DNA of 64,000 nucleotides from Podarcis cretensis (lineage: Eukaryota): assembly GCA_951804945.1 (NCBI GenBank), contig OX638152.1, positions 101,122,001-101,186,000 of the forward strand. Reading direction: 5' to 3'. Both the position numbers and the translations under genes were made by a program. Position 1 is the stretch's first letter; every line of letters begins with the position of its first letter. This document shows, piece after piece, positions 22,255 to 24,984 of the stretch. Under the pieces are notes generated by a model, which did not search any database, was not told where the DNA came from, and saw only the letters and a program-made list of their open reading frames with translations.

Positions 22255-22640
22255 ACAGACAAATGCCAACAAGATCAGGGGACTGCTGTGGACACAGTAT
22301 TATATTGATTTCAGCACAGCTTTCAGCAAAATCTCCCACGGTATTATTGTTGGCAAGCTGGTAAAAGTGTGCTAGACAATGCTACTGTTAATTGGATTTG
22401 TAGCTGGCTAATAGACCATACCCAAAGAGAACTCATCAACGGCTCTTCATGACATTGGAGAAAAATGACAAGTGGAATACTGCAGAGTTCTGTCCTGGGC
22501 TTGATGTCTATATAAATGACTTAGACAAAGGAGTGGAAGGAATTATTGTCAAATTTGCAGATGATGCCAGAGAACAAAGGAGAATTCTTGACAGAACCTG
22601 GGCCAAAACAAAATGAATTTCAACAGAGGTAAATTTACAC
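22255..22640 (+). mobile_element. CR1 LINE RT fragment, left part of an interrupted old copy
   Basis: Decayed CR1 RT motifs (tattgatttcagc..gcttt; aaatttgcagatgat = KFADD). Confidence 0.8.
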
Positions 22641-22795
22641 TGGCTTGGGGCTTGGCTTGGTAGTACATTGGAAAAGAGGGGGGGAAGGGTCAAAGCAGCC
22701 TCCCATCAATGGCTGTGCCAAGAGGAGATAGAGGAGGAGCCACCGGCCACTGAAGCTGTGTTTGGCTCTGCTCCCGGCTCCTCTAATCCTCTTTT

Positions 22796-24859
22796 ATTTT
22801 TATTTTTTTTAATAATATTTATTCAGATTTTTTAAAGATTACAAAGAGAACATGAGAAGAACAAAAAACAAAAAGAAATACACAATACAACACAAAAACA
22901 GAAAAATACAAAGAAAAAAAATGCAATCATTAAAAAAGAAAAAAGAAAAAAACAAATTAAATCCTTTACATAACCACTTCCCTTTTACTTATTTTCTTGA
23001 CCTCCCCACATCTCCCATTTCTGTATTCAAATTCAGATTTTTATTTCAGCAAGTCCTTTCAACCTTATTTTTTAACTTAATAATTTCTTTTAATATGTTA
23101 TTATTTTACACCTTATTTACATTTAATTTAATTTATTTTAAAAACCACTTTTGCTTTATCCAATCTTAACTCTCATCCAAACTTATACTTCAATACTTAT
23201 TCTCTAAGGTCGACCAAAATTCCCTTCCACGATTTTCCCAATTTTCATATAAATAACAGGACAAAAAGAAAAACAAATTATAATTATATACCCTTTAAGT
23301 TCCCAATTTCTATTCCACCCATGCCCCCTTCCCGGTTTCAGTCCCCAACATGTGTCCATCAATCTCATATACAATCAGCCTGGAGATCTCAAGTCCAAGG
23401 CTCTTAATTCTCTCTCACTTCCTCTCTGCCGGTCTTTTTGATAGTCCTTAATATTAAAAACCAAGTCTCGGGGAAGCTCCGGCCCAACAGGATCCACCTT
23501 TCTTCCATCCAGGCCTTCATACTTAAGAACTAAGCCTATGGGGTATTCCAGATCTTGTTTCATGCTCCTTTCAAATCCAAATGTCCCCAAAGCTCCATCT
23601 TCCACCTTAATCAAATTTGTAATCCTTAGGTCTTCAGATCTCTACATAAGGAGATCTCTCCACTTTTCACTCTCCAATTCAGGCCGGACTTTCCACATCA
23701 GGTTTTTATTTTCCTTTGTTGCCATCATGTCAGCCCTCAAATTACCATTCTCCTTTAACATCTGCAAAATTTCAGCTCCCCCTTCCATTTCTTCAGGGAC
23801 AACATATATCTCCTTCTCCAAATTCTCAAAGCTCTCAAATTTCTCTATTTGTCCAGTTGAGTAGGCTTCCTGCGTCAGATCCTTGTCCTTATCAAATTCA
23901 ATGAGAGTATTCACTGTTAAATCCAAAGTTGTAGCATTTGTAGCCAAAACATCAATTTGACCTTGCAACTTTCCCAAGAGAACAAATGCTCTGTTCAGTT
24001 CAGCCAGTATTATTCCTCCACCAGCCATTCTTTGTAATGTCCCGAAGCCCCCTCTAGGGGAGTTTTAGTTCCTTGATGTTCCTTTCAGCACAAATCCAAA
24101 AGTCCAGTTAGTTTGTATCAGCCCTTCCTTTTTCAGGAGCAAATTGTAACAAAATGTAACCAGCAGAAGCAACAGAAACAAAGTCCTCTTTTTGCGTCTT
24201 GACAGCTAGTTTGACAGCTGTCAAGATCTTCCTTACCTCATCGCCAGGCTCTCGCAAAACACTCCCGGGTCCGGGGGGGTGGCGCTTCAGCTCCCAAATT
24301 TAGTTCTTTTTCTGCAGGTTCCCCTGCTTCCAATAAAGTTCTTATAATGCCAAACCGTGAAATTAAGAACTTTTACAAAAAAAGAAGAAGAAAAATTCTC
24401 CTCGACCTTAGTTAACAGGCCCTTTGCTTTAAGTTGTTTACAGATAGGGAAGGTGGACTTCCTGTTTAGACCTTCCCCGATCGTGCCGAATTTAAAAAAT
24501 TTTCTTTAGAGTTCCAATTTCCGTACTACTCACGGGTTGTTGCTTTAGAGTCCAATTGTTCACAAGAAGAAGTCAGCGCTCTCCGACAAACGGCTGTGCG
24601 GCTTCACTCCGCGGAAGAAGCAATCGACTCTCAGCACCGCGCCACTCACCCCGTCCCGTTCCGGAGCCTTTAAAAAGGCTCCTTCGCGGCTTGGGGGGGC
24701 GCAAATGGTACCCACCGAGTCCCCACGCTCACAGGCTTCACCCACCTGTGATTTTTGAGGGTCCCCGCTTCGCCGCAGCGGTAAGACCCGATCCCGCGGA
24801 GCCGATCCCTCCGGAGCTCAGAGGGAATCCGCCATTAGTCGTTGGCACTAACCCGGAAG
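22796..24859 (-). mobile_element. Full-length ORF1-only L1 derivative (HAL1-like non-autonomous retrotransposon)
   Basis: A-rich tail at the left end; CpG-rich 5' UTR ~24530-24859 with YY1-like aatggcgg and ETS-like acttccgg; 17-bp TSD tcctctaatcctctttt (22779-22795, right copy interrupted); TTTT/AA endonuclease site; single ORF and no RT. Confidence 0.75.
23375..24028 (-). pseudogene. Degenerate L1 ORF1p-like reading frame (~217 codons, one in-frame TAG)
   Basis: ORFs 23642-24028 and 23375-23614 share a frame. Heptad-like N-terminus; NLMWKVRPE and LPRDLVF resemble the ORF1p RRM motifs NLRIxGxPE and PRDIIVRF. Confidence 0.6.
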
Positions 24860-24867
24860 TCCTCTAA

Positions 24868-24905
24868 GCTTCTCAGCCTTTTGGCTAAGATCAAGTGTAG
24901 TATCT
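24868..24905 (+). pseudogene. Truncated U2 snRNA retrocopy (about U2 nt 4-41)
   Basis: gcttctcagccttttggctaagatcaagtgtagtatct matches the U2 5' end with one substitution, including the branch-recognition GTAGTA; flanked by tctaa duplication. Confidence 0.93.
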
Positions 24906-24984
24906 AATCCTCTTTTAAAGCCATCAAAGTTGGTGACTGCCTCCTGTGAGAGTGAGTAGCATACTTTAACTATGTCATCAGTGT

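Follow-up and report, generated by a model that had tools for sequence, protein, structure and literature searches.

Described counterparts of the inverted U2 chimera

The closest described counterparts of the locus studied here are the inverted, 3′-truncated chimeras in which U1, U2, U5, or U6 is joined to an L1 or SVA element, and for which Doucet et al. (2015) invoked twin priming (PMC4476161). As set out in the portions of that paper drawn on here, inverted chimeras make up 7 of 30 repeat-associated copies and, for U2, 1 of 58 characterised human copies, and the lizard survey concerns U6 only, interpreted as template switching (PMC4476161). Twin priming has also been proposed by Law and Burns (2026) for antisense tRNA-half/LINE-1 and 5S/LINE-1 chimeras in mammals (PMC13174262). 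Tailless U2 retropseudogenes are known as well, including in the anole (PMC5322556; PMC4476161). Two further systems bear on the comparison: HAL1 elements, defined as ORF1-only, poly(A)-tailed, and flanked by a target-site duplication (TSD) (PMC5322556), and the Utopia and Keno elements, which insert into U2 genes (PMC4640811). The published inverted U1, U2, U5, and U6/L1 chimeras run counter to a premise of the first-pass annotation of this DNA, namely that snRNA-LINE chimeras usually lie in the same sense (PMC4476161).

In the window (the whole 64,000-nucleotide stretch of lizard DNA that was analysed), a 3′-truncated U2 copy lies head-to-head with the 5′ end of a non-autonomous L1-derived element, and one TSD surrounds both. 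The locus resembles the chimeras of Doucet et al. in its 3′-truncated and inverted snRNA, its single TSD, an endonuclease site in the sense of the retroelement, and microhomology between snRNA and target; it differs in its lizard host, in having a full-length non-autonomous L1 derivative as partner, and in a 5-bp repeat of the TSD start at the junction (PMC4476161). The frequency of the class differs too, with 24 of 100 listed U2 loci here compared with 1 of 58 in human (Fisher p = 8e-5, for two sets that were selected differently), and 10 of the 24 partners are non-L1. With the chimeras of Law and Burns the locus shares a 5′ piece of RNA that is antisense at the L1 5′ junction, the RNA start facing the L1, whereas theirs involve mammalian L1 and other RNAs (PMC13174262).

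The remaining systems are each similar in part. Tailless U2 retropseudogenes are cut in the same short region of U2 and primed by target complementarity, and at least 28 of the 100 listed loci here are of this kind, but they stand alone with a TSD of their own, whereas the window piece shares that of the element. The element looks like a HAL1 (≈2 kb, L1-type 5′ UTR, single ORF, A-rich tail, TSD, and no reverse transcriptase), yet its 217-aa ORF has no detectable similarity to the one L1 ORF1 compared or to a Pfam family. A U2 break near nt 38-39 is common to this locus and to Utopia and Keno (PMC4640811), but the U2 in the window is a retrocopy and antisense to an unrelated element. In open-access text we came across no inverted snRNA chimera described from a reptile or with a non-L1 LINE as partner; the supplements of PMC4476161 and PMC13174262 may hold cases. 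The window locus is most likely of the published kind, an inverted 3′-truncated snRNA/L1 chimera, and what is new is apparently one of degree: the frequency of the class in this genome and its apparent sharing by non-L1 elements.

Anatomy of the window locus

The locus comprises the following features, given in window coordinates.

22779..22795, + strand: left (tail-side) TSD copy, with its 14-bp core at 22782-22795
22796..24862, − strand: full-length non-autonomous L1-derived element of 2,067 bp, with an L1-type 5′ UTR, one short ORF, and an A-rich tail at the left TSD
23378..24028, − strand: 217-codon ORF of the element, with one stop in the window copy and matching no known family
24860..24862, no strand assigned: microhomology, 3 bases common to the consensus 5′ end of the element and the target
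24863..24867, + strand: 5-bp filler with the sequence of TSD-core bases 1-5
24868..24905, + strand: U2 snRNA nt 4-41, 3′-truncated and antisense to the element, its last 3 bases overlapping the TSD
24903..24916, + strand: right copy of the TSD core, ending at TTTT/AA, a site of L1-endonuclease type and the first nick of the element
24903..24975, no strand assigned: older multi-copy repeat fragment (≈73 bp), the immediate target

On re-reading the sequence, we find the left TSD copy at 22779-22795 and an interrupted right copy (24860-24867, taken up again at 24903-24916), both as the first-pass annotation had described them. Its duplicated TSD start is likewise present, 24863-24867 repeating the first 5 bases of the core, as are the antisense, head-to-head placement of U2 at the 5′ end of the element and the microhomology of U2 with the TSD, the last three U2 bases being shared with the right TSD copy at the snRNA/target junction. 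The Rfam U2 match on the + strand covers 24865-24942 with 44.9 bits and E 6e-7 (gathering score 46). Set against a full-length copy in the same genome (L022), the piece spans nt 4-41 with a single mismatch, at a CpG (by eye); the start at nt 4 proposed earlier is retained, and the end moves from nt ≈38 to nt 41.

The 5′ end of the element could be placed by comparison with its relatives. Among 29 other copies, 19 begin GGACTTCC, so that 24860-24862 are at once the 5′ end of the element and target sequence. Because these bases belong to the element too, the distance to U2 shrinks from the ≈8 bp first assigned to only 5 bp (24863-24867), and the TSD is certain over 14-15 bp and amounts to 17 bp with the microhomology counted. 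An exact TSD of 14-15 bp encloses element and U2 together, and a 5-bp partial repeat of it stands also at the inner junction. The TTTT/AA at 24913-24918 fits the L1 endonuclease in the sense of the element, not in that of U2, by the consensus site given in PMC4476161.

The surroundings are more layered than the nest of CR1, HAL1-like element, and U2 that had been proposed, with a ≈73-bp piece of another repeat as immediate target and a further repeat piece at ≈22715-22760, visible as a depth peak. The outer flanks of the locus, which we take to be CR1, are collinear in two other copies (L092 and L132). Contigs from four public runs could be aligned, at the left flank only. One of them (organism F) is identical to this flank over 22400-22782 (383 bp) and continues for 37 further letters, and contigs of organisms C and E extend 29 letters beyond the left flank, the length expected at an empty site entering the old repeat. 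By letter count only, the contigs on this flank hint at relatives without the element. The 3′ end of the element has almost no depth in contigs of three relatives (C, D, and E), where absence proves nothing. A search of the assembly, which says nothing about alleles, found no copy of an element-only junction elsewhere.

An assembly artefact, in which a U2 read was joined to the end of the element, is very unlikely, given that the TSD matches on both sides, that the U2 fragment has a substitution of its own, and that 23 other loci on different contigs have an equal layout. The 383-bp identity of the public-run contig with the left flank also speaks against it.

U2 fragments across the genome

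An exact 22-nt word from the U2 core occurs 129 times in the genome; the 100 listed places were fetched and the other 29 left out. Most U2 fragments at these 100 listed loci (of 129) end at nt 36-41. In a long-range scan, for which the sequence after U2 was sought again far upstream, 20 of 91 loci were positive, compared with 1 of 273 in the swap control (TSD of 12 bp or more). Five more shared-TSD loci appeared among 39 longer-flank or new stretches (the new ones being the last 9 loci), where the looser cut-off of 11 bp or more and 8-kb flanks gave 6 of 117 in the swap control. With L066 (11-bp TSD) added, and with L099 (no tail and no repeat match) and L104 (low complexity) removed, U2 and an antisense tailed retroelement share a TSD at 24 of the 100 listed U2-core loci (129 in the genome).

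In these chimeras, U2 overlaps the TSD by a mean of 3.2 nt, and by 2 or more in 15 of the 22 chimeras scored. A TSD-start filler of 4 or more bases is absent from all 23 chimeras other than the window, 3-base matches occurring in L111, L004, and L097. Same-sense partners were sought in a mirror test, which was positive at 6 of 91 loci, three of them A-tailed near-full-length U2 copies and the others tandem or chance. By eye, a sense Sauria-type SINE comes right after the U2 5′ piece at L087, L095, L110, and L175, with a shared TSD only in L095; there, a 10-bp TSD surrounds U2 nt 1-70 and the SINE, and the locus is likely a template-switch chimera.

Solo U2 is the commonest resolved class: at 28 of the 100 listed loci, a TSD of at least 12 bp adjoins the U2 piece. 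The TSDs of resolved solo pieces are mostly 11-20 bp long, and short ones exist; at L069, a solo U2 has a short TSD or none, and the empty site is visible in paralogous repeats. About 40 of the 100 listed loci have no clear TSD. At seven loci without a long TSD (L011, L013, L015, L027, L089, L098, and L182), the U2 fragment ends in a short tandem repeat of its last five bases, which suggests primer slippage or a different enzyme. At four others (L012, L028, L088, and L116), the U2 segment is partly re-copied in tandem at the junction, suggesting repeated re-priming.

A gapped pattern run genome-wide identifies exactly two U2 pieces at a 5′ end of the element type, those of the window and L111; in a looser version, two of four matches are unrelated solo U2 copies. 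L111 contains a second full-length relative, 69% identical; a single base separates its 5′ end from U2 nt 1-39, and one TSD of 15-16 bp surrounds element and U2. The first-pass annotation had suggested counting antisense snRNA fragments at the 5′ junctions of the family: antisense U2 is found genome-wide at the window locus and L111, and none of the 29 other 5′ ends sampled has it.

We give almost no credence to the U2 piece being part of the family's own 5′ end, against which the 0 of 29 other 5′ ends and the mere two cases genome-wide speak, or to its stemming from Utopia or Keno. The truncation at nt 38-41 does lie near the Utopia/Keno site, where downstream U2 starts at nt 39, and reptile Utopia is described, in the part of the source drawn on here, as having weaker target specificity (PMC4640811), but U2 in the window is antisense to the element, no Utopia or Keno body follows the fragment, and solo copies share the truncation range. 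Such an origin was rejected on orientation, and the element does not lie between two halves of a U2 gene.

Partner elements of the chimeras

L1-type elements are the partners in 14 of the 24 chimeras: nine with matches to L1 ORF2, the two full-length elements, L084, L020, and L106, the last assigned weakly, its partner being a 41-nt A-rich stub. One L1 partner (L174:4166-7729) retains an unbroken ORF2 stretch of 1,188 aa within a 5′-truncated copy of 4.4 kb. The L020 partner, 1.16 kb long, is a short A-tailed non-autonomous element with no relation to that of the window at the DNA level; the inverted U2 piece lies at its 5′ end, and a second copy of it is located inside L205.

The other 10 partners are non-L1 (L064, L073, L090, L096, L118, L023, L184, L004, L066, and L080), eight of them assigned by homology or a published tail and two, L004 and L066, by tail only. 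Five (L064, L073, L090, L096, and L118) belong to a family that we term X, and the L184 partner shows a weak protein-level match to it. The L023 partner belongs to a second family, Y; this is a LINE present in multiple copies, with domains for APE endonuclease and reverse transcriptase (RT). The RT of family X scores 42-60 bits against human ORF2p, below the 565 bits that an L1 partner from the lizard reaches. The two families, X and Y, are 35% identical to each other and 23-28% identical to lizard L1, and both have microsatellite tails; by ORF2 distance and by these tails they fall outside the L1 clade. They may be akin to the RTEX clade, which they resemble. Family Y is young, its copies (L212:472-6027 and L213:800-5654) being 95-99% identical, and encodes an unclassified upstream ORF of ≈400 aa ahead of the APE endonuclease, the RT, and the microsatellite tail. 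The L080 partner is a SINE of Sauria type with an (ACCTTT)n tail, the tail given for Bov-B-related Sauria SINEs (PMC13295347; PMC6007223).

Origin of the chimera

We consider it very probable that the U2 piece in the window was written in during the element's own insertion, by twin priming in trans. The features in support are the class of 24 loci, the shared TSD, the nick in the sense of the element, the overlap of U2 with the TSD, and the match to the published twin-priming chimeras (PMC4476161). Priming of the second-strand 3′-OH on U2 RNA in trans, already put forward in the first-pass annotation, fits both the 24 of 100 listed loci and the published model (PMC4476161).

In such an event, L1 ORF2 protein would nick at TTTT/AA and the element RNA would be copied from its tail, after which a second nick 14-17 nt away would leave a 3′ overhang. 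The finished element cDNA may then jump to the overhang, copy 5 nt, and let go; the end of the overhang would pair with U2 nt 39-41 and prime a U2 copy back to nt 4, and the ends of the element cDNA and the U2 cDNA would be joined. Because the 5-bp repeat is situated between the 5′ end of the element and that of U2, the simplest reading has it copied by the element cDNA and not by that of U2. The filler is thus most simply explained if the element cDNA began a normal jump onto the overhang and released it before U2 priming. The earlier account had U2 priming first and a slip back to the target afterward; this order is likely not the right one, since the repeat adjoins the 5′ end of the element. 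The joined product is likely an inert by-product.

The letters can be read equally as a normal insertion of the element with a 17-bp TSD, the 5′-side copy of which was later split by a tailless U2 with a 5-bp duplication of its own. Two such events explain the 5-bp repeat directly and in fewer steps, whereas under a single event this repeat is unusual, being absent from all 23 other chimeras, and calls for extra steps. A TSD of 17 bp is within the range of the element family, no resolved class is larger than that of the solo U2 fragments (28 of 100 listed loci), and short- or no-TSD solos exist alongside the ≈40 of 100 listed loci that lack a clear TSD. At L175, a SINE with its own short TSD lies right beside the U2 piece, so near-coincidences do occur.

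A later U2 insertion would, however, have to hit no more than 17 bp from the 5′ end, in the orientation and with the boundary seen at the 23 concerted-looking loci. The chance of a U2 fragment falling within 17 bp of a 5′ end of the family in the right orientation is 0.001-0.003 per 100 fragments, and it comes to 0.03-0.17, at most, with all TSD-bearing repeats taken as targets (an assumed 300,000, which is very generous). The scant depth of the element's 3′ end in the contigs of three relatives suggests, in addition, a young family and little time. Because this chance expectation is tiny against the 24 concerted-looking events observed, we hold to a single event and regard two as improbable.

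The second-strand cut and the joining of the 5′ end are the least understood step of LINE insertion. We lean, if only slightly, toward a broader reading in which retrotransposition in this lizard lineage is routinely accompanied by second-strand priming on U2 as a side reaction, at more than 10 times the human share and not specific to L1, extending to microsatellite-tailed non-L1 LINEs and Bov-B-dependent Sauria SINEs; in which U2 fragments show exactly where the second strand was nicked for several LINE clades; and in which the window locus keeps an aborted jump of the element cDNA onto the overhang. Inverted U2 pieces would then tag the 3′ end at the second nick, and the aborted jump, if true, would establish in what order the steps at the 5′ junction occur. 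Should twin priming in trans also serve non-L1 LINEs and a SINE of Bov-B type, it would belong to target-primed insertion in general instead of being a quirk of L1, and the lizard genome would offer dozens of natural cases.

The element family and its open reading frame

The element family is ≈2.15 kb long, and the window copy, at 2,067 bp, is ≈96% identical to its nearest copies. A degenerate motif for the 5′ end of the family has 1,605 matches, and the TSDs, usable in 16 of 20 fetched copies, are 8-20 bp and mostly 15-18 bp long. Over its first ≈450 nt, the element matches the 5′ end of an autonomous L1 copy (L205) at 85% identity. The features of a HAL1 are present in the missing ORF2, the poly(A)-like tail, the TSD, and the L1-derived ends. 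The designation HAL1-like in the first-pass annotation therefore describes the layout well, but the homology to ORF1 that it implies was not detected with Pfam, BLASTP, or hhalign.

The 217-codon ORF has stayed intact in the majority of 150 scored copies, which range down to 67% identity, and is found also at L037:178-831 (− strand). It matched no Pfam family and, by BLASTP and hhalign, showed no similarity to the ORF1 of the one lizard L1 that was compared, which shares its 5′ UTR; the hhalign profiles were shallow, and that L1 ORF1 itself lacks a match to the ORF1 Pfam family. One unnamed database homologue, at 51%, came from a search over near lengths only. The ORF may be an ORF1 that has diverged strongly, or else an ORF of unrelated origin that was captured and is under constraint. 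We describe the element as a non-autonomous L1 derivative with the looks of a HAL1 and treat it as a candidate member of that group.

Two minor features of the family were also observed. The window copy lacks ≈90 bp found in sister copies near the 3′ UTR (≈23110), and at L038 (G000:C9:80055506-80055864), two copies of the family lie head-to-head ≈35 bp apart.
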